From: Candidatus Poribacteria bacterium
GTDB taxonomy: Bacteria > Poribacteria > WGA-4E > WGA-3G
Length of the DNA: 64,000 nt
NCBI GenBank assembly: GCA_963665235.2
Contig: CAXXLX010000001.1
Location: 1,888,001-1,952,000 of the forward strand
Direction: 5' to 3'
Shown: positions 16,835 through 29,253 of the stretch, piece by piece
Layout of the letters: each line of letters opens with the position of its first letter
Position numbering within the stretch: position 1 is the stretch's first letter
The notes under the pieces: generated by a model
Database searches by the model: none
The model's input: only the letters and a program-made list of their open reading frames with translations
What the model was told of the DNA's origin: nothing
Made by a program: the position numbers and the translations under genes

Positions 16835-16850
16835 TTTCAATTTTGCGGGG

Positions 16851-16897
16851 TTGTCAGAATCACGGATTATCACAGATTACACAGATTTCGCGGATTA
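16851..16897 (+). repeat. 9-mer repeat element
   Basis: TTGTCAGAATCACGGATTATCACAGATTACACAGATTTCGCGGATTA. Confidence 0.8.
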
Positions 16898-16917: not shown

Positions 16918-17322
16918 TTATTTGCCGAATGCCAGGGCGAAAAGTACCTCTATCAGGTAAAAAACAGTAAGCGTGATAGAAAAAATGGCCGATAACCAAT
17001 TACATTTCGGTTTACCTTTGTGCTTGCTGAGATTCATTTCGAAATCGGTGTCAGTTTGTTGGCGGATTTCGTTGTAGACCTGTCGGAACAGTCGTTCCTG
17101 CCAGAGAAAGTACCCGTCCAGAATCCAAAATCCCGCGATGGTAAGTAAAACTCCCAAAACAAAATATGCGCCTTGCCCGGAGTTCTCTATAGCGCTTAAA
17201 ACCCTGGCTGCAACAAGGAGCGTCACGCTCCAACTTTTTACAAGAAGACTGTTCCGGCCTAAACGGTTAATAACGACTTGCGTCATTTCCAAATGCTTTA
17301 CGACTTTTTCAGTGCCGTCCAT
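16918..17322 (-). CDS. Small TIR-associated membrane protein (about 3 TM), paralog 2
   Basis: HLEMTQVVINRLGRNSLLVKSW...FWILDGYFLWQERLFRQVYNEIR; close paralog of 19598-20005. Confidence 0.85.
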   Translation of the reverse strand: MDGTEKVVKHLEMTQVVINRLGRNSLLVKSWSVTLLVAARVLSAIENSGQGAYFVLGVLLTIAGFWILDGYFLWQERLFRQVYNEIRQQTDTDFEMNLSKHKGKPKCNWLSAIFSITLTVFYLIEVLFALAFGK

Positions 17323-17371: not shown

Positions 17372-17400
17372 ATTGTAATGCTTATAAGTGAATTTGTCAA
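17372..17400 (-). promoter_or_regulatory. Sigma70 promoter for membrane protein paralog 2
   Basis: TTGACA-17 bp-TACAAT. Confidence 0.7.
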
Positions 17401-17474
17401 TACATTTCTAAGGGAAATGCACGGTTTTAGGGGTGAATTTCTAATTGGCAGGGTTAGGGGTTGGCGTTTTCTTA

Positions 17475-17682
17475 TTGTCTGAATCGCGGATTATCGCGGA
17501 TGACGCGGATTGCCTGTCTTGTCTGAATCGCGGATTATCGCGGATTACACGGATTTCGCGGATTATTGCCTCTGATGTCGGCAAGTTGTGTTATCTAAGA
17601 TTCCTAAAATGTTACCTATACACCGGATGCAGCTTTCTCAATGCGATCCGCCTAAAATCTGTGTCATCCGATAAATCCGCGA
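17475..17682. repeat. 9-mer repeat elements (two direct copies, one inverted)
   Basis: TGTCTGAATCGCGGATTATCGCGGAT twice, plus inverted ATCTGTGTCATCCGATAAATCCGCGAT. Confidence 0.8.
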
Positions 17683-17705: not shown

Positions 17706-18755
17706 TTAAACGTTCAAAGAAAAACGAAGTCTTTCGTCCGCAGCAACCAATTTCTCCATTAAATACGTAATATCTACCCATTTTAGTTGTTTGGGGATCG
17801 TTCTTTCCTGGCTTATTATCCAACTAAGGATTAGACTGAGGTCAAATGCGTTTCTAGCTGGTGCGAATTTTTCTAGTACTTTTTCTTTCTGTACATAATT
17901 TCGTGGCTCGCTCGGATATGATGTAAGTTCGGAGGGTGGTGGAATCTTATTGGTACCATCAGTTTCTTGTGCTTCATCTGTTTTAACTTGAATATCATAT
18001 CCTTCCGTAGCGATATGGTATGCCCTTGCTGCCCTTTCGTAGTCCCATTTGTTTTTAACATCATTATCAATCCAATGTGCTAATGTTTGCAGGTTTACCT
18101 CAGCTCTTTTCCAACGCTTGTAAAATTCGCGCTCACCTGAAAGTTTTGTAAGATGATTTTTTAAGAATGAATAGATTTCATCTGCAATTATATCTGAGTC
18201 TAACTCCTTTTCGCTTTTGCGTTTTATCTTTTTGAACTTTACTTCCTGTGAAGATAACATCCCGTAAGGTATTCGGGTTCCGTATGTAGGTTCATACCAG
18301 CTTAGGCGGATATCTAAGGCTGTTCCCGGTTTTACTGCATTTAATCCGCTAATTTCAAGGAGAAGCGGAAAGTGTTCTGCTTTATCCAGTTCAGAGGGTT
18401 CTAATGTAAAACTGACCCACATACGTTCACCGTATTCTGTAATACGCAAAGTGGCTTCGGGAGACCGTTTATCAGACGCGACTAACTTCACTGCATGCAC
18501 TAATGCCTTGAATACGTCTCGGTGTTGGATAAGTCGGTATTGTTTTGAAGCGGTGCATACCGGTATGTCCTGACGATCTTTAATAAATTCAGCATCGATG
18601 CTGAGAGATTCACGTATTATGTTGTCAAGGTATTTATTGGTGCCGCCATTATGTAGACTAAATGGAACTCTTTTGAAGTGTGGAATCCAATTTATTAATT
18701 CGTTAACCGGTTTTTTGTGTACAAATGCTTCTCTACCTTCCCATTTTAGTGTCAT
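17706..18755 (-). CDS. Divergent DUF932/DUF945-like protein
   Basis: SKQYRLIQHRDVF, YGERMW resemble the DUF932 N-half; NS.DG and R.VC.NG motifs altered; start MTLKW after GGAGG. Confidence 0.5.
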   Translation of the reverse strand: MTLKWEGREAFVHKKPVNELINWIPHFKRVPFSLHNGGTNKYLDNIIRESLSIDAEFIKDRQDIPVCTASKQYRLIQHRDVFKALVHAVKLVASDKRSPEATLRITEYGERMWVSFTLEPSELDKAEHFPLLLEISGLNAVKPGTALDIRLSWYEPTYGTRIPYGMLSSQEVKFKKIKRKSEKELDSDIIADEIYSFLKNHLTKLSGEREFYKRWKRAEVNLQTLAHWIDNDVKNKWDYERAARAYHIATEGYDIQVKTDEAQETDGTNKIPPPSELTSYPSEPRNYVQKEKVLEKFAPARNAFDLSLILSWIISQERTIPKQLKWVDITYLMEKLVAADERLRFSLNV

Positions 18756-18955
18756 ATTACACCTCCATATCAGTGTTTTCCACAATCGTAATCTGCTTTC
18801 TGCCGTGCTGCCATTTCTATCGCAGCATCAGATTTTGCTGGCACGGGTTCCGGTTCGGGTTCAGAAAACGCAGTCTCAACATCTTCCTCAAGATAACCCT
18901 CAACGCTTTCAGGTTAGGACTGCACTTCTTCAACAGGTTCAAGTTATGTTCCCTT

Positions 18956-18984: not shown

Positions 18985-19026
18985 GGAAAAAGAATTCGCA
19001 CTGGTTTGTATGTTGGCGGTGCGTTA

Positions 19027-19072
19027 TTGTCTGAATCGCGGATTAGCACGGATTACACAGATTACGCGGATT
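19027..19072 (+). repeat. 9-mer repeat element
   Basis: TTGTCTGAATCGCGGATTAGCACGGATTACACAGATTACGCGGATT. Confidence 0.8.
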
Positions 19073-19095
19073 GAAAGAGGATTCGCGATCTGTAG

Positions 19096-19581
19096 CTATC
19101 TGCCTGCTTGTTTGGCGGCTTTCTCTATCCAGTTTCCAAGGTTGGCATAACCGTTATCAGTAACCCAGTCGTAGTACGAACAACAAGGGTAAACAGGGTT
19201 AGTGGTAGGTCTAAAGTTAAAGGGGGATTGACTAAAAGGACATGCTCCTTTAGGCGATGTCCAACCGTACCTGTTTTTAACATTATTGATGTGCACCCCA
19301 AGCAAACCATTGCCCTTTTCAATACTTTTCTCGATTTCGTACTTGACCCATCTGCTATTAGCAGTTTGACTGCCAATCAGAACACACGTCACAGACGTAC
19401 CGTCCATCTGCTTATCTATCCATCGCTTGATGGCAAGATCAGTATTTCTTTTTAGTGTTTCGATTTCGGCACTATCAACAAAACCTGCTGCTGTGTAACT
19501 GCCTTTCGCAACCCAACTGTATCGGACTTGATTGACGCGCCAAACATCATCCCAATCAAAACTGAAAAATACATGTCTCAT
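19096..19581 (-). CDS. ThsB-like TIR domain protein (MTH538/DUF1863)
   Basis: RHVFFSF..DDVWRVNQVR, TSVTCVLIG, SRWVKYEI (catalytic Glu), GNGLLGVHI, YDW...GY.N. Confidence 0.9.
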   Translation of the reverse strand: MRHVFFSFDWDDVWRVNQVRYSWVAKGSYTAAGFVDSAEIETLKRNTDLAIKRWIDKQMDGTSVTCVLIGSQTANSRWVKYEIEKSIEKGNGLLGVHINNVKNRYGWTSPKGACPFSQSPFNFRPTTNPVYPCCSYYDWVTDNGYANLGNWIEKAAKQAGR

Positions 19582-19597
19582 AGCAACTCCACATAAA

Positions 19598-20005
19598 CTA
19601 AAAAAAATAGACAATTGCACAGACAAAAAAGACTTCGATGAGATAAAAAATGACAAGTGTTTGGGAAAAAATAGCGGAGCCCCGGTTACACTTCGGTTTA
19701 TCTTTGTGTTTACCAACATTCATCTTGAAGTCGGTGTCAGTTTGTTGGCGGATTTCGTTGTAGACCTGTCGGAACAGTCGTTCCTGCCAGAGAAAGTACC
19801 CATCCAGAATCCAAAACCCCAGGATGGGGATCAAAAGCACCAGAGCAATATATGGATTTTGCAGCTCCTGTTTGGCGATTAAGACCATTGCTGCAACAAG
19901 AACCGTCATGCTCCAACTTTTTAAGAGAAAACTGTTGCGCCCTAAACGGTTAATAACAGCTTGCGTCATTTCCAAGTGTTTTACAACTTTTTCGGTGCCA
20001 TTCAT
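19598..20005 (-). CDS. Small TIR-associated membrane protein (about 3 TM), paralog 1
   Basis: HLEMTQAVINRLGRNSFLLKSW, hydrophobic helices, LDGYFLWQERLFR; lies between two TIR genes. Confidence 0.85.
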   Translation of the reverse strand: MNGTEKVVKHLEMTQAVINRLGRNSFLLKSWSMTVLVAAMVLIAKQELQNPYIALVLLIPILGFWILDGYFLWQERLFRQVYNEIRQQTDTDFKMNVGKHKDKPKCNRGSAIFSQTLVIFYLIEVFFVCAIVYFF

Positions 20006-20061
20006 GAATCCATTCTCCTTATGTTTGTGGCCGCTTAATAGTCGCCATTTAAACGACCTAT

Positions 20062-20637
20062 TTACCGCAATCCATGTTCTTTTTGTAGTTCGTACGCTTT
20101 TCCTAAAAGCCAACTACCGGAGCGCCCTCTCTTAATCCTATCGAAAATTTCCGAGATAGTCTCAGCCCAATTTTTTACATCATCAAGACTTCCGAGTGGT
20201 GTTCCTAAAGAGATGAACTCAGGATGGTTACCTGATGTGACTAAATGTGCGATAAGAGGATTAGGAGCTAGATCTGGAAAAGGGCCAGGCGAATTTTGGA
20301 ATGGCTTAACGAATCTCTGGCGTCCTCGGGCTCCGCCAATCTCATATGGGGGCCACGGCGATGTGAAAGTTTGTGGACTAATTACACCTAAAAGTGCCGA
20401 TGCCACATCTAACCCTTCTTCAACGCAACGTGCAATTTCATGATGGGGACTATCCTCTGGCAAGCGCGCATCTTTTTTGTCAAACCAGATGTCAAGTTCG
20501 TATGTGTTCTGGACTATATCTGCACATTCTTCAGCCCATTCCGCGTCTGGTGATTTATTCCTATAAGAGATAAACACGATCTTTGTTGTTGAAGATATTG
20601 TAGATCTCCTAAATTCACAGTAGTTTATTCCCGGCAT
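20062..20637 (-). CDS. TIR domain protein (TIR_2-like)
   Basis: VFISYRNK, DIWFD, EEGLDVASALLGVIS, SPWPPYEIG (catalytic Glu). Confidence 0.8.
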   Translation of the reverse strand: MPGINYCEFRRSTISSTTKIVFISYRNKSPDAEWAEECADIVQNTYELDIWFDKKDARLPEDSPHHEIARCVEEGLDVASALLGVISPQTFTSPWPPYEIGGARGRQRFVKPFQNSPGPFPDLAPNPLIAHLVTSGNHPEFISLGTPLGSLDDVKNWAETISEIFDRIKRGRSGSWLLGKAYELQKEHGLR

Positions 20638-21062
20638 TTTAACTTGCCTCCATTTAGAACATTTTGATTGATAACAGCACTGCGGGAATGTAGAGACACC
20701 TCCCTGAACATTTCCGCCCTGCTGCCAATTGATTTTAAATTTACCATATCTAATAAAAAAAAAGCAAGAAAAAACTAAACTTATTTTTTACCTGATTTAC
20801 CAGAAGGCACGTTCTTCAGGATAACCAATTTCTGTCCAATAGAGCGAAACTCTGATGGCCCAACGGATATGTGAGAGTGTCCAGTCCATCAAAAACGACA
20901 ATCGGTTCTAAATCGATAAATTTCACAGATCTGCTTGTCCTAAAAACCCGAGTACTCCATATAATCCGCGACTCAGACACTCCCCTCCACAATCGCAATC
21001 TCATCTTCTGTTAAATTATACAATTGATATACCCGTTTGTCAATCTCTTCTTCCTGCATAGC

Positions 21063-22385
21063 CAGGGCCATTTAGTTTTAGGAATTTTTTTCCTATCTGT
21101 TATTATTTTGATTTGGACAGATGCAGCGTGACTTTTTTCGCTGCATCTGCTATACTTCACTGTAAATAAAATAATCCTTTTTTTTAGGAAGGTTGAAGTA
21201 TGTTACTCAGTATATTATCACAAATTGTAGATCCACGCAAGGCAAAAGGCAAACGGCATCCTTTGGTTTCCATCCTTGCTCTTATTATTATCGGTTTTCT
21301 GTGCGGTCATACAGGTTATACGTCTATAGCGACCTGGGCCCGCAATGAACCTGAACTGGCTGAAGCGTTAGGTTTCCGTTGTGGGAAGACCCCGTGTCCT
21401 GCCACGATTCATAATCTGTTTAAGCATCTTGATATAGAAAGTTTAGAAACCGCCCTAACCGAATGGGTGTCTTTACAACTTGCGGCTCTTGAAGGGACAG
21501 ACCCCTCGGGTTTGAAAGGCATTGCTATAGATGGTAAAGAACTCTGCGGTTCCATAGACATAGACACCGGCCGCCGAACCCATTTACTCTCCGCTGTCTG
21601 TCATGAGTTAGGGGTTACCCTTGCACAATGTGCCGTCAGTCACAAGACCAATGAGATACCTATTTCCCGGCAACTGCTGGAAAAGTTTGATGTCAAAGGA
21701 AAAGTGGTGACAACGGATGCTCTATTGACCCAACGTGCTTTTTGTAAAGAACTTATCAAACAGAAAGCCTATTATGTGCTGCGTGTCAAAAAGAATCAGA
21801 AACAGATGTATATCGATATTGTGTGGGTCTTTGCCCCCCTTGTAGAGACGGACCCCCCCGAGGTGCAAGCACGCAGACTTCAAAACGCACACACGCAAGC
21901 AGGGGCACACCTACAAACGCACACCGATGTTGAAGAAACACGCGGATTTATCATCACACGCATCCTAACAGCTAGCACAAGCGTGTCAGATTATATTGAC
22001 TGGCCGGGTCTTGCACAAGTCTATCAATACAAAGTGCAGCGCGTCAATACCAAAACAGGTGAATGTGAAACTTCTATCCAGTATGGTATCACTAACTTGT
22101 CGCCCGAAGAGGCAACAGCGGAAGACTTGCTAAAACTACACCGAGAACATTGGACGATAGAAAACAAATCCCACTGGGTTCGAGACGTGGTTTTAGGAGA
22201 GGATGCCTCAAAAGCAAGAACAGGCAGCATCCCCCAAGTCATGGCAGCTTTACGCAACACCGCACTGGCAGTCTTACGATTTGCCGGTTATACGAAAATC
22301 ACCGAGACAATACGATCTTTCGCCTCAAAACCTAAACTCGCAGTTAACCTCATCACATGAAAATTCTTAAAACTAAATGGCCCTG
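21063..22385 (+). mobile_element. ISAs1-family insertion sequence with 10-bp target-site duplication
   Basis: TIRs CAGGGCCATTTAGTTTTA / TAAAACTAAATGGCCCTG; TSD CCTGCATAGC at 21053-21062 and 22386-22395. Confidence 0.95.
21200..22360 (+). CDS. ISAs1 (H-repeat) DDE transposase
   Basis: DPR...RHPL, IAIDGK, TNEIP, VTTDALLTQ, VKKNQ, HWTIENKSHWVRDV. Confidence 0.95.
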   Translation: MLLSILSQIVDPRKAKGKRHPLVSILALIIIGFLCGHTGYTSIATWARNEPELAEALGFRCGKTPCPATIHNLFKHLDIESLETALTEWVSLQLAALEGTDPSGLKGIAIDGKELCGSIDIDTGRRTHLLSAVCHELGVTLAQCAVSHKTNEIPISRQLLEKFDVKGKVVTTDALLTQRAFCKELIKQKAYYVLRVKKNQKQMYIDIVWVFAPLVETDPPEVQARRLQNAHTQAGAHLQTHTDVEETRGFIITRILTASTSVSDYIDWPGLAQVYQYKVQRVNTKTGECETSIQYGITNLSPEEATAEDLLKLHREHWTIENKSHWVRDVVLGEDASKARTGSIPQVMAALRNTALAVLRFAGYTKITETIRSFASKPKLAVNLIT

Positions 22386-23653
22386 CCTGCATAGCGGTGT
22401 CCGCATTTGGATTCCCCGCTTTCGCTTCAAGAATTTCATCTACTAAATCAATAATAGGGGTTTGTTCCTTTTTTGCCGGCATAGCTATGGGTAATTCGCG
22501 AACAACCTTAACCTTCACTTGTGCTTGGCTCTTGCCCTGTTCTTGTGATATCGAATGATAGATATAGTTCATCAAACGACTATTAAATAACGCCAGAAAA
22601 TACTTTAGGTCCGTTTTTTGAGATTTGGGGAGAATCGTATGCAGCGTGTTATCTGTGTAAAAACGTCCCAATTCGGCTTCGCTATGATAGGCCACTATTA
22701 AATCATCGTCAGTTTGACGCATAAGCAAACGTTCGGGTTGATGATGGTTCCTAATATCACCGCGAAATTTCCAGTATTCGTTTCGTTTACTCGGTTTTCC
22801 CCCTCGACCAATTCCGGGAATTGGTAGCGGCTCGTAGTTGACATCACAGAACATGTATTTGGCTTTTGAGGAAGTCCACTGCACCGAGTATTTTTGAATT
22901 TGCCTTCCTTGTAAGAGGCGATGTCTGCACCCGTTGTCTTCCGAAAAGAAAATTTTAGATCTGACATTTCCTGAATCAATTCCAGTGTCCAAGACCTCAC
23001 AGTATTTTCCCACCTTATCAAGTGCCAAAAGTCTTAACACCCAATCGTTTTTTGCACTTAACAGGAATTTAGAGTCTGGTATTTTGTTGATCGCTGCGTA
23101 TTCTACTGCACCGTTTGAGTGGTATTGAAAATCGGGAAAGTTCATTTCTCCGCTCATGTAGGAATGCTGATCTTCTACCTCCGATTTCAACAAAATAAAA
23201 ATAGCCGTATAGATAGTGGCTTCAAATGTGTTCGCTGGTGCCTTGACTAAATGAAGTAACCTATTTTCCAAAAACAGGTTACGAATCCTACGTTTTGTGG
23301 GCAGCGCGACGTAACTGTCATTAGCAATATATGCAAAAATCCTATTCTCGGCAGTAAGCTTAAACCCAGCAAAGATAAAGTAGTCGTATAAATCACCTGC
23401 CCAGCCGTAACTCTCTCTGAGCTGGTTACGCATTGTGAGAGATAGGTGTTCACCTTTTGCATAAGGCGGATTGCCAATCACTACATCAAATCCATTTGCA
23501 ATGCCAAACATCCGTTCCGAGTCAAACCAATCAGCAGTATCGTTTTGGTCATAAATATCCCATTTGGCGATCTTTTCGGCATCATCTGCTGGCATACCGA
23601 CATATTTTAGCTCGGTTGCCAATTTTGTTCGCAATCTTTTATCCTTAGTCTTA

Positions 23654-23802
23654 TACCATTTTTATTAATTATTCTATCATTACCGGTTGTTAGAAATGAA
23701 ACGGAGAACGGAAGACCCAAACTAAAAGTTTATGCTACAATAAAGAGCACAAACTGGAAGTTTATGCTACAATAAAGAGACATTTTCAATTAGAAATGGT
23801 AT
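23654..23802. mobile_element. About 150-bp MITE flanked by TA (IS630/Tc1-mariner-like), copy 1
   Basis: Termini TACCATTT...AAATGGTAT, TA duplication, internal tandem AAACT..AAGTTTATGCTACAATAAAGAG; inverted near-identical copy at 63034-63182. Confidence 0.88.
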
Positions 23803-25965
23803 TACATGCACGTTTGCGTTTGCGGGTAGTGGCGTGGAAGTGCTGTTCACGGTTGTTAAGCAGTTCACGTTCCAAACGTTGTGCCTTTTCGCTTGTTAGT
23901 GTCGGGTTCAGATCTATCAGCGTGTTGGCAGCGATAAACCGCGTCTCTAAATTCGGCAACGGTTTAATACCAAAATTCTCTGCGTTCTGCATCGGTTCCT
24001 GCTCAATTGCAAGCGAGATAAAAAAGCGGAGTTTAGCGATTTGACACGCAATCGGTTGGATATCCACCCCGAAGATAGTGTTTTGGATTAGGTATAACTT
24101 CCGTCCGAAGTCTGAATCTCGGTAACGCTCAAAGGTAGCACTGATTTCGGTAAGTTCGACATCGCGTTCCTGTTGGTCGGACGTATCAAAAGCCTCGGAT
24201 GCGCGTTGTGTCGCAAGTTCCTTCTGCAATTTTTCCCATCGGGTGTTATCTGGGTCAAGCCGCCGGAGTGCCAGTGTCAGTTTGTGGAGCATTCCCATTG
24301 GGAACGCACCGGAACCGACCGCCGGATCGAGGACTTTAAGTTCGGAAATTGCTCGGACGATTGCGTCTGTCTCGACATCGTCAAACCATTCGCTTGCATC
24401 GTCAAACTGCTGTGCATAGTCGAGGAGATAGTGTAACCGCTCCTTCCAGAGTTCTGCGTCGCCGTCGGTTGGGGCACACTTTTGGGAGAGCGTCGCGACC
24501 AATGCTGTCCTCTACCATATAGTCGACGATAGCACGTGGGGTGTAGTAGGAGCCTGTCTGTTTTCGTGCCGTTGCCCCGGTTTCTGGATTGTAGGCGGCG
24601 AGTAGGTTTTCAAACACCTTGCCGAGCAGCTCGGGGTCCAGTGCCACCTCCTGCTCTATCGGTGTGTTCTCCTCAACGGTGAATTTGTAATGCTCAAGTA
24701 GGGGGAGGAGTCCTCGGTTTTTGTCAAAAAAGAGGCGGTTGGGGATAGATAGTTTGTGGTACTGATTATCAGAGAAACAGTCTATTCTGTAGCTCTTTTC
24801 ACCTGTTGCTTTGAAGGTATCCAGACAATCGAACAGTCCGCCGTTGATGAAGGGGGTTTGTGCAAAGAGGGATAGCAGTTTATCCGGGTCGCGCATCTGT
24901 GCTTTATATCGGTAGCAGGAGAAATCGCGGTTCGTATCGTAGGTTTCTTTGCTAAACCTACGTTTGTCTATTTCGGTGTTGAGTGTAGCGAAAAAGAGGT
25001 TTTGTAGCACGGCGCGATAGTAGGAGTCGCCGGTATCAAAATTATCCTCTTTGAGTAGGTCTTGGATTTGTGTTTTGTTGAACAACTCCTCAGCCACCAA
25101 CCCTGTTGCTTGATAAACCAGATAAAGAGCAGTCGTGTGATGAGGCGGATGACATGCTCCTCCGGTTTCTATGACACGGTTTTCATCTGTCGGGAACGTC
25201 GATTCTTTAACTGCCCATTCAAACCATGCGAACAGTTTTCGATAGAACTGTTTGTTGAGTTCTTCGGTGTCCAGTTTGGCGAGCCAGGCAGCGAGTAATC
25301 CGTCGAAGTTTTTCGGTTTTTTGTTGCTAACCATCCACTCTGCACACGTTTGTAGAGAAAGTTCGGAGAGGATATCGCGATGTGCGCGATGTGGGTTGTT
25401 GAGGCGGATGTCTTTGATGAGGGTGACCTGTCCGAGCACATCGCGGTCGCCATCAATTTTGTCTGGACGACGGTCGGCAAAGGCAACCGTCAAACGAGCC
25501 CCCGCGCGAAACAGGATCACAGTGGGTGTGAACATACGTTTGTTAATTTCTCGTGTGAACGTAGCGTATTTAGTCCGGGAGTAGGTGTTATCTTTCAATT
25601 CCACTGCACAGAAAAGGAAACTTTCTATGTTTCCCTTATCAAACGACCCTGCCTCAAGAAGCGTCAACTGCTGCTCCCTGGCGACTTCGTCGCTTGTGAA
25701 TTGGAACACTATTTGGACAGATTCGACGTTGTTGCGGAATTCCTGTTCGGTCTTAGTGTTGACGTTCTCTGCTGGAAAATCTTCAATAAATTCATCTACT
25801 GAGTCGATGCGTTCATGTGTGCGTTCACTGCGGTACCCCAAGGTTGCCAGGAGGTTTTTTGATTTTTCAAGAAAATCGCCGGTGGACATTGCTGATAGTG
25901 AGGCGTTAATTGCATTTCTGCTCGTCATGTGCGTAATCTCTGCTATTCTGTTGAGAAAATCAAGG

Positions 25966-28900
25966 TTATGGCGTTGTGATAATTAGCCATGTCACCAATT
26001 CAAAATCGCTGGAATCTGTAGGAGCCTCGGATGCGACAGGCAATCTGAAACCGCGCGGGCCGCCCCGCCCCAAATTTTGCCTTTGCGTCTTTTTATGTGA
26101 ACGTGTGATATGTGCAATAACAGTGTCCAGCAGCTTGTCGTAATCTTTCATATTGTTGCCGTGCTGGGTTTCTTGGTCGAATTGAAGGCATAACCTTTCT
26201 AATACCTCACGTTTTCCGACAGCGGAAGTTTCAAACAGCTCTAACACCTGTTTGGCGTTTGCACAGCCGTAGCGGATATCCCCGTTTTTGCGGATGTAGA
26301 CTGTATAATACGGATAGATGGGGCTCGGTGTTTTTTTCTCTTTGTCTGTTGTAGTGTTAAGTTGGCGTAGGAAGAAGATAACCCCGTTTTCCGTAGGATT
26401 GTTTCCGTTATCGGTAACCGCGTACGCCCCATCCGGCGTGTTTTCCAATTCTGCCCTATTTTTTTCCAGATATTTTAGCAGCTGTGCGAAGAAGTAATCC
26501 AGTGTGAAATCGCTTAGGACAACGCCATCAGAGAGTTCATCTAAATCCAACACCTCTTCCCGGAGCTGCTGCAGCTGTTTATCACGGAAATTGAGTTCCA
26601 TCTGTGCCTGTTGGTATGTAAATTCATTTAGCGGGTCATCATCGCCGCTTGCAGCGGTATCCGCGAGTGCCATACGAGCGGCGACGCGGCACTGTAATCG
26701 GAGATACACCTCCATGTCTTCGGTAGGCCAATAGTTAATCATTTTGACCGCTGTATTGCGGCTGCCGATTCGGTCAATCCGTCCAAACCGTTGAATGATA
26801 CGGACAGGATTCCAGTGAATATCGTAGTTCAGCACCGTATCACAATCCTGAAGGTTTTGCCCTTCGGAGATGCAGTCTGTAGCGATGAGAAGGTCTATGT
26901 TTTCAGTTGTGCTGTCGCTGCGGACTCTTGCGCGTGGAGCAAAGTTAGTTAGGATAGCGTTAAAGTTGTTTTGTCCACAAGTGGTTCGCGTCAGGTCCCC
27001 GGAGACCATCGCCATCTTCAGTCCTAATTCAGTAGCGAGGGGTGTCAATTGGTCATAAAGATAGAGTGCGGTATCTTTGAAGGTAGTGAAGATTAGCAGT
27101 TTGCGATTAGTTTTTCCATCCATATCGGTTGTTGGATTTTGTGCCTTGTTTCGGATGTGCACTTTAATTGCTTTAAGTTTTCCGTCCCTTTCAGGGCTAA
27201 TGGCTTTGACGTTGTCCCATGCGGCGGTTAAGGTTTTTTTATCCTTGATGAGGTCTTGCTTCCAACGGTTGCAATCTAATTCGCTGAGGTGGTACGGATT
27301 TTTGGCACGGTTGACTAAAAATTCCTCATCTTCCTCATCCTCATCGGGGAGGACATCGGCTTGTGCATCAGGTATATTGCGGTTTTGCTGGAACCGTTCG
27401 ATTTTTTCCAGCATTGTACCAATTTTATTGATGGTGCGTTCAAGCGTTTGGGAGAGGGAGTGTGCGGCACTCTCCAAACGTTTGAGGAAGTTGGTTTGCA
27501 TCATACCGATGAGGAATTTCTCACGGTCTTCCTGATTGAAGCGGAGTCTCTCTTTTTCATCTGCAAGTCGTTGTTTTGCGGCTGCGCTAACGACATAACT
27601 TGAGGGTCTATAAATAGACAGCGCAAATTCCCCTATCTGGTCCGTCAAAGCTTTGTAGGAGAGTGCGCCGGTGAGGTCGGTAGGCGGGTAGCAATTTTCT
27701 GGGTCGAGTTGTTGCGGAAATTCGCCTATTTTATCCATCTCTTCAGCATAGAATCGCTGGATATGTTTTCGGGAGCGAGCGATAGAAATTCCGCCGAGTA
27801 ATTGAAAAAAGTCCGCGCCCAATGTTTCAAAGAGTTGTGCCTTGTCTCTTATGTTGTTCTCGGTTGCTTTGTCTTCCCATGTCTTAAATGCTTTTTGTGC
27901 CTGCCGAATTAAATTGCCGATATTGCTTATGCCTAGGCTCTCTCTAAAGACATCCTCGCGTTTTTCAGTCATGAGATGGATTTGATTACGTAGGTCGGTA
28001 AGAGAGGTATTCACCGGGGTTGCGGAGAGCATCAACACTTTGGTTTTTGTTCCTGCCTTGATGACCTCCTCCAATAGGCGGGAATAGCGACTGTGTTTAA
28101 CGATGTTGTCATCGGCATCGCGAGTAGGTTTGGTATCGTTTCGGAAGTTATGCGATTCGTCGATGACGACTAGGTCAAAGTTGCGCCAGTTGAAATTTGC
28201 CAAATTGACTCCCCCAGCATCGCCGCTATAGCGGGAGAGGTCGGTATGTGATAACAACGTGTACCCGAATTTGTCCTCAAGGAACGGATTGGATTCTTGT
28301 GCATTGTGTGCGGGGTAGAGAGCCCAATTTTCATTTAGTTTTTTAGGGCAGAGGACGAGTACACGTTCGTTTCGCAATTCAAAGAATTTGATAACTGCAA
28401 GTGCCGTGTAGGTTTTTCCCAGGCCGACGCTATCTGCCAGGATACAACCGTTGTGACGTAATAGCCGGGCGATTACACTTTTCGCTCCCTCTTTTTGGAA
28501 TTCATACAACTTTTTCCAAATTTCTGTATCGTAGAGATGTGTATCTTCGAGGGTCTGTTCGTTCGTTTTTCGGGTTTTAATTTCTTCTCGGAACAGTTCG
28601 TAAAGGGTTTTGTAATAGATAAGTTCGGGTGGATGATTCCGCCCAAGCTGCTCCAATTTTGCAAGGACTATCTCTTTGACATCTTCAACCAGGGTATCGT
28701 CATTCCAGATTTCGTCGAACCACGCCTTGAGGTCTGTGCGGTCTCGGTCGCTGTCCACCTCAAGGTTAAGTTCAATGTTGCTGGTATCTGTGCTCAGTCC
28801 GAGCCCACGCATCGTAAAATTGGAGCTGCCGAGGATAGCTTTGTCTATGCCGTTGTTAGCGATGTGATACATTTTCCCATGGAGTAGATTAGATTTACGG

Positions 28901-29253
28901 GTCGTTCGGATTTCCACCTTCTCCTTTATCCATTCGGCACAAGCTTTGGCAAGCGGTTTTTGTCGGAGCTGCTGGTTGAGTTCCAACCCTGTATCCGTTA
29001 TGGTAAACGCCTTTCTGTCACTGTTTATCGGGTCGAGATGTTTGATAAAATCGGGTTCGCCGAATAGGAAGCGGAGTTCGTCTATTTTGTCTAAAGCGTG
29101 TTGCAACTTTTCATAGGCGTAGATGGTGAAATAGGCGGATACAATGGAGAGCGTGGAACCGTTTTGAATGTGCTGTTCTAGAAAATTATGAACCGTTCCG
29201 CGGCGGAGGTTGTCTCGGATAGCGGATTTGAGGCGTGGGTTTTTATCTGCCAT
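25966..29253 (-). CDS. SNF2-family helicase with N-terminal PLD-like nuclease domain
   Basis: LHGKMY...GSSNFT (PLD); LADSVGLGKT, VIDESH, LSATP, SEGQNLQ, QRFGRIDRIGS. Confidence 0.92.
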   Translation of the reverse strand: MADKNPRLKSAIRDNLRRGTVHNFLEQHIQNGSTLSIVSAYFTIYAYEKLQHALDKIDELRFLFGEPDFIKHLDPINSDRKAFTITDTGLELNQQLRQKPLAKACAEWIKEKVEIRTTRKSNLLHGKMYHIANNGIDKAILGSSNFTMRGLGLSTDTSNIELNLEVDSDRDRTDLKAWFDEIWNDDTLVEDVKEIVLAKLEQLGRNHPPELIYYKTLYELFREEIKTRKTNEQTLEDTHLYDTEIWKKLYEFQKEGAKSVIARLLRHNGCILADSVGLGKTYTALAVIKFFELRNERVLVLCPKKLNENWALYPAHNAQESNPFLEDKFGYTLLSHTDLSRYSGDAGGVNLANFNWRNFDLVVIDESHNFRNDTKPTRDADDNIVKHSRYSRLLEEVIKAGTKTKVLMLSATPVNTSLTDLRNQIHLMTEKREDVFRESLGISNIGNLIRQAQKAFKTWEDKATENNIRDKAQLFETLGADFFQLLGGISIARSRKHIQRFYAEEMDKIGEFPQQLDPENCYPPTDLTGALSYKALTDQIGEFALSIYRPSSYVVSAAAKQRLADEKERLRFNQEDREKFLIGMMQTNFLKRLESAAHSLSQTLERTINKIGTMLEKIERFQQNRNIPDAQADVLPDEDEEDEEFLVNRAKNPYHLSELDCNRWKQDLIKDKKTLTAAWDNVKAISPERDGKLKAIKVHIRNKAQNPTTDMDGKTNRKLLIFTTFKDTALYLYDQLTPLATELGLKMAMVSGDLTRTTCGQNNFNAILTNFAPRARVRSDSTTENIDLLIATDCISEGQNLQDCDTVLNYDIHWNPVRIIQRFGRIDRIGSRNTAVKMINYWPTEDMEVYLRLQCRVAARMALADTAASGDDDPLNEFTYQQAQMELNFRDKQLQQLREEVLDLDELSDGVVLSDFTLDYFFAQLLKYLEKNRAELENTPDGAYAVTDNGNNPTENGVIFFLRQLNTTTDKEKKTPSPIYPYYTVYIRKNGDIRYGCANAKQVLELFETSAVGKREVLERLCLQFDQETQHGNNMKDYDKLLDTVIAHITRSHKKTQRQNLGRGGPRGFRLPVASEAPTDSSDFELVTWLIITTP

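Follow-up and report, generated by a model that had tools for sequence, protein, structure and literature searches.

Within the 64,000-nucleotide stretch of Candidatus Poribacteria DNA analyzed here (the window), an operon in which two TIR genes enclose a gene for a small membrane protein is most likely an additional member of the already described type V Thoeris systems, catalogued in PADLOC as PDC-M50, and not a novel type of defence system. We consider it highly probable that the locus encodes a type V Thoeris abortive-infection system, in which a cyclic ADP-ribose signal is relayed to a ThsF membrane pore. According to the available part of a December 2025 preprint by Yirmiya et al. (bioRxiv 10.64898/2025.12.03.692087), type V Thoeris consists of ThsB and ThsF, and operons combining a TIR with a three-TM protein are validated as defence. 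In the same source, ThsF is a three-helix membrane effector, annotated as DUF2270 and modelled with AF3 as a heptamer that carries basic pockets between its subunits. The type V TIRs described there produced 3'cADPR on phage infection; when 3'cADPR was supplied, cells carrying the system of B. thuringiensis grew less well, and those carrying that of Bacillus sp. 1NLA3E did not. The original prediction had seen in this operon a TIR signalling type outside the named systems; this claim of novelty falls because the operon matches an already described system, the very outcome that the prediction had named as counting against it, and its membrane protein and second TIR are very likely ThsF and ThsB.

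Three open reading frames were observed, all on the minus strand and in the order TIR-a, membrane gene, TIR-b, and they form a genuine operon. TIR-a (20062-20637, 191 aa) is a TIR_2-type protein with a PYEIG motif and Glu99, serving either as a second sensor or as a passenger from another cassette. The membrane gene (19598-20005, 135 aa), of the thsF type (PDC-M50A), encodes a protein with three predicted membrane helices and predicted self-association. TIR-b (19096-19581, 161 aa), a thsB gene (PDC-M50B / ThsB1) with a KYEI motif and Glu82, is the likely cognate signal synthase. The intergenic gaps measure 56 bases between TIR-a and the membrane gene and 16 bases between the membrane gene and TIR-b. 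The arrangement originally predicted, two TIR proteins with catalytic Glu flanking a 135-aa membrane protein, was thereby found in place, and the Glu of the W-x-x-x-E-I motif is invariant in all six aligned TIRs, TIR-a and TIR-b included. TIR-a is preceded by a GGAGG site, and the ATG of TIR-b, from which its 161 aa are counted, by a GGAG site. Longer starts offered by the ORF finder (a 207-aa TIR-b and a 171-aa membrane protein) were dropped, as they overlap the neighbouring genes and relatives begin at the shorter ATGs.

A perfect sigma-70 consensus (TTGACA-17-TATAAT, 12/12 matches; 21015..21043, minus strand) sits ~380 bases upstream of TIR-a and, judged from the consensus match only, is likely the operon promoter; sigma-70-like sites are not enriched in number, there being 7 in the actual sequence and 10.3 on average after shuffling. 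In contigs of public sequencing runs, one of which is possibly the source of the window itself, the junction of TIR-a with the membrane gene is bridged in 4/4 runs from two studies and that of the membrane gene with TIR-b in 3/4 runs, with zero differing letters at both. A REP-like short repeat lies between genes at about 16840-16890, 17470-17570, 19020-19075 and 20960-21000; the genome contains 26 occurrences of its 18-base core, and the read depth and joints of the public runs pile up there.

The genes were assigned to families by profile searches. In Pfam, TIR-a belongs to TIR_2 (E 1.4e-7) and TIR-b to ThsB_TIR (E 8.9e-25), and a search of NCBIfam with the window genes returned nothing useful. 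Against the PDB, TIR-b reaches E 5e-36 with both 6LHY and 9B7D, in alignments that span the Glu region; 9B7D is titled 'Putative cyclic ADP-D-ribose synthase ThsB1', and 6LHY is the type I enzyme of B. cereus. The PADLOC search, proposed as a check by the original prediction, identified the membrane gene and TIR-b as a PDC-M50 pair: the membrane protein matches four PDC-M50A models (best E 1.2e-36), while TIR-b matches PDC-M50B (E 1.5e-54) and ThsB1 (E 4.1e-59). This pairing in adjacent genes was observed as model matches and not through the PADLOC rule file. The PDC sets are candidate systems of PADLOC (bioRxiv 10.1101/2024.01.29.577857), and the main text of that preprint, as available, makes no mention of M50. 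The literature search found no paper naming PDC-M50 and, judged by title, no related paper on Thoeris in Poribacteria. Among the homologues listed for the membrane protein, the nearest named relative is a Ca. Poribacteria protein (81%), and the 120 homologues shown in each of two lists include no protein from B. thuringiensis, Bacillus sp. 1NLA3E or Psychrilyobacter.

The 135-aa membrane protein contains both parts of the signature by which it was originally characterized, the HLEMTQAVINRLGRNS..KSW and LDGYFLWQERLFR motifs. The accompanying estimate of about three transmembrane segments agrees with three hydropathy peaks, beginning at residues 26, 53 and 117, and with three long helices (3-46, 52-86 and 115-134) in a monomer model of pLDDT 95.5. 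Foldseek returned no match to this model at E<=0.001, and VIA-align retrieved only generic helical bundles (best Z 9.8, rmsd 3.6, 118 aligned). Oligomer prediction, also among the checks proposed, favoured self-association: a four-copy model scored 0.51 against 0.00 for the best control, with runs agreeing in >=75% of contacts and a partner pLDDT of 75-82. The mark used was reached by 20/30 proteins solved as pairs and by 1/23 solved as single chains; a model of four copies is unlike this calibration set. In the model, adjacent copies pack laterally, with helices 1 and 3 of the first resting against helices 1 and 2 of the second; a ring would need this kind of contact. Across 116 diverse family members, conservation is 97-99% for Arg20, Lys29 and Arg79, and 84% for Thr116. 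The first three are candidate residues of the ligand pocket for which the original prediction proposed to look.

Whether this membrane family is ThsF was examined indirectly, through the DUF2270 label and, since a direct match to DUF2270 was not found, through the gene counts of a published island. In Pfam, PF10028 (DUF2270) does not match the membrane protein of the window, and it is weakly matched by 4/39 members of the family (best E 0.006). Alignment of the family with true DUF2270 by hhalign gave a probability of 1.3% with 6 sequences and of 21% with 30 sequences (E 0.001), and a TIR-seed match was found at 0/30 true DUF2270 loci. The available preprint text describes a Psychrilyobacter island with 7 ThsB, 4 ThsF, 2 ThsJ and 2 putative effectors (10.64898/2025.12.03.692087). 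A locus titled Psychrilyobacter sp. led to eleven genomes of its genus, and one of them (G156) matches the membrane-family alignment, with exactly four copies within 10 kb. One of these copies carries a stop, and the three open ones are 29-35% identical to the membrane protein of the window. The island further encodes seven stand-alone TIRs, four over the Pfam ThsB_TIR cut-off and three under the TIR_2 cut-off, together with two paralogous TIR-SLOG genes of 598 and 599 aa and two small ORFs of no named family. The counts observed agree with the 4 ThsF, 7 ThsB and 2 ThsJ given in the preprint for the same genus, possibly for a different strain. PF10028 has zero matches in the G156 genome at E<=1, and the membrane family occurs in 0/5 of a set comprising four Psychrilyobacter MAGs and one Propionigenium genome. 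Because the membrane family is the only four-copy non-TIR gene of the matching island, and PF10028 is absent there, this comparison of counts makes it very likely that the family is ThsF; the DUF2270 label of ThsF seems to be a remote annotation.

The membrane family is large and linked to TIR genes. It comprises 3,565 representatives (clusters at 50% identity, E<=0.001), and 137 plasmid records match it. The co-occurrence with TIR genes that had been anticipated was observed: a TIR is annotated in the fetched flank of all six plasmid loci examined from the top of these records, some of which carry two or three TIRs, and among the best 30 loci of the host phylum a TIR lies within 1.5 kb in 21 and none within 1.5 kb in 9. 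A Pfam check covered 5 of the 21 neighbouring TIRs in the phylum, and all of these linkage counts are descriptive, kin loci not being independent. In three proteins (P0361, P0399 and P0400), the membrane domain is fused with ThsB. Within the host phylum, the family is present in 80/151 genomes (own genome included, few by fragments only), often in several copies; this is unusually common when set against the 470 type V systems, in about 1.2% of genomes, reported in the accessible preprint text (10.64898/2025.12.03.692087). Other layouts also occur. A SLOG domain is fused at the N-terminus of the ThsF-type domain in P0385, P0397 and P0401, with a similar layout in P0285, and from their sequences such fusions are possibly effectors with a dedicated nucleotide-binding domain. 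In a Streptomyces plasmid locus (L008:2932-5387), the annotation places a HIT-domain gene between membrane gene and TIR.

A second thsF-type gene, absent from the original prediction, lies at 16918-17322 on the minus strand. It encodes 134 aa, is 74% identical to the first and has no adjacent TIR. An AGGAGG site precedes it, as does a near-consensus promoter (TTGACA-17-TACAAT, 11/12 matches; 17372..17400, minus strand; consensus match only). This copy retains the conserved basic residues and is without the first hydropathy peak. Its first membrane helix contains an arginine, Arg40, and a conserved Pro is replaced by Thr60; each of the two substitutions occurs in 0/119 close relatives. The gene is probably drifting, and it may have a modulating role. 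Between it and the operon lies a 359-aa ORF (17706-18785, minus strand), which varies between public runs, has no Pfam or NCBIfam match and matches PADLOC CARF3 weakly (E 0.007).

Judged by its neighbours, the operon seems to sit in a defence island. A type IIG restriction-modification gene (22288-25928, minus strand), split over three frames, is abutted at its 3' end by a DDE transposase gene (21200-22360), and an intact PLD-SNF2 helicase gene (25966-29253, minus strand) matches PADLOC C3a139 at E 3.5e-106. FRG and TPR genes were found downstream of the operon in the Pfam/PADLOC scan.

The relatives of TIR-a are found in another setting. Matches occur in 14/120 related genomes, with 12 strong loci at 43-53% identity, and in 11 of these 12 the relative closes a ThsB-X-TIR cassette (L136-L145 and L149, for example L139:389-2067); a member of the membrane family lies within 1.5 kb of 0/12. 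The X protein measures about 160-180 aa and has no Pfam match in the five of five scanned. An Atlas lead of 0.87 points from X to DUF6650 (the type VI effector ThsG), and hhalign gave 0.5% against only two DUF6650 sequences; searches for DUF6650 in two sets retrieved 0/401 and 2/401 genomes, too few for a good profile. The cassette may be an unnamed Thoeris type, and X may already be listed among the putative effectors of the preprint (10.64898/2025.12.03.692087). At two of the cassette loci (L144:115-1213 and L149:188-1286), the cassette is succeeded by one more ThsB TIR and by an Nmad2 gene.

Whether TIR-a has been recruited as a second sensor or is a passenger from a stacked cassette is therefore a near-even choice on present evidence. 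The chance that it serves as an additional phage trigger acting through ThsF stands at about one half. Somewhat below even is the chance that only thsF and thsB form the working unit, TIR-a being a leftover of a ThsB-X-TIR-a cassette that does not signal to ThsF. The cassette membership of 11/12 strong relatives, and the membrane family near 0/12 of them, argue for such a leftover, as do three further observations: X was not found in the genome of the window (best tblastn E 0.48); in the genome G035, a mere 3' relic of TIR-a (residues 142-191) stands upstream of a thsF-thsB pair that is 77% identical in DNA; and TIR-a ends about 10-16 residues short of its relatives. Nevertheless, its frame is intact, with Glu99, the GGAGG site and the perfect promoter upstream, its junction to the membrane gene is seen in contigs of two studies, and multiple TIRs per effector are common around the membrane family. 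A passenger TIR-a is compatible with a type V system and alters only the role of TIR-a. A more elaborate scenario appears unlikely to us, namely a module swap in which TIR-a from the X cassette would have been rewired to the type V pore: the ring would then read two TIR clades, perhaps through two cADPR isomers, and the second ThsF copy, with its promoter and its Arg in the first membrane helix, would join the ring and tune or damp it.

In the type V system that we favour, phage infection would cause TIR-b (ThsB) to convert NAD+ into a cyclic ADP-ribose signal. This signal would bind between the subunits of a predicted ring built by the ThsF-type membrane protein, and the ligand-bound ring would breach the membrane, so that the infected cell is stopped. 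By analogy with the characterized systems, the signal is probably 3'cADPR. That the window copy works as defence is likewise inferred from relatives, since defence, phage-triggered 3'cADPR synthesis and 3'cADPR toxicity (in 1/2 type V systems) all come from the systems covered by the available preprint text (10.64898/2025.12.03.692087). The original prediction of a membrane protein that is both receptor and pore-forming effector coincides with the type V proposal in that text and is probably right; its three-gene unit is more doubtful, the TIR-a clade being normally associated with another gene.

Other partners and other modes of action carry much smaller probabilities. The membrane protein might be a different one of roughly 30 predicted TIR-linked effectors, or a membrane half that needs a ligand-binding partner and answers another signal. 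The weak likeness to DUF2270, the SLOG fusions and the HIT gene beside the membrane gene in one plasmid locus would fit this; yet only the membrane family fits the four-copy effector of the island count, and its size, three helices and modelled self-association agree with ThsF. Moreover, one simple pattern found no HIT-like motif in the window, and 8 long fused forms of the membrane domain gave no match to a HIT domain, which leaves this alternative quite improbable. Even less credible is a system in which the TIRs act as toxins that deplete NAD+, with the membrane protein as their sensor or antitoxin. The available preprint text does caution that the TIR may be the effector in unverified configurations (10.64898/2025.12.03.692087); against this stand the close relationship of TIR-b to signalling ThsB1 structures, the 3'cADPR made by type V TIRs on infection and the common occurrence of stand-alone copies of the membrane gene.

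Signalling by the TIRs to a ThsA-type effector encoded at a distant site is extremely improbable. At the locus itself, such an effector had been predicted to be missing, and SIR2-SLOG and TM-Macro effectors are indeed absent among the neighbours scanned. The genome is 92.6% complete and encodes a single SIR2_2 protein, and the STALD and ThsA_Macro searches, whose control genomes were also without a match, found nothing in it; DUF6650 gave no match either, again with no match in a positive control. The distant partner is nonetheless disfavoured by the SIR2 protein itself, which has 920 aa, lies 1.25 Mb away and shows no SLOG match at E<=1e-4, and by the remaining three TIR_2 genes, located elsewhere in the genome, which encode one 464-aa TIR protein and two TIR-TPR proteins.

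As a system, the operon adds little to type V Thoeris, which is already described and, with 3,565 clusters, widespread. It is of some use as a natural setting in which to ask whether ThsF responds to a TIR that comes from a different cassette; the ThsB-X-TIR arrangement of its relatives also brings in an effector X without family assignment. Among known systems, PADLOC PDC-M50 has both of its components matched here over nearly the whole model length; the locus differs from it by the extra upstream TIR, TIR-a, which has no PDC-M50B match at E<=0.1. With type I Thoeris (ThsB and the SIR2-SLOG protein ThsA) it shares a close relative of the solved ThsB1 and the same likely signal, whereas no ThsA was found beside the window TIRs or in the genome searches. 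The nearest named Pfam family of the membrane protein is the 8xMP octameric membrane protein family (PF24838; E 0.002), also closest by Atlas features (0.88, a lead only); at 18 bits against a cut-off of 30, it is at most a distant relative. True 8xMP proteins stand beside TIR genes in two related loci (L146:742-1263 and L148:2179-2694), one of which also holds a thsF-type gene. In the case of type V Thoeris, the DUF2270 label was not recovered directly for the window effector, and the locus stands apart in that its effector gene is flanked by two TIRs that belong to different clades, and that another copy of the effector stands alone at a distance of 1.8 kb; in common with that type, a ThsB-type TIR with catalytic Glu adjoins a small three-helix effector that is predicted to form a homo-oligomer.
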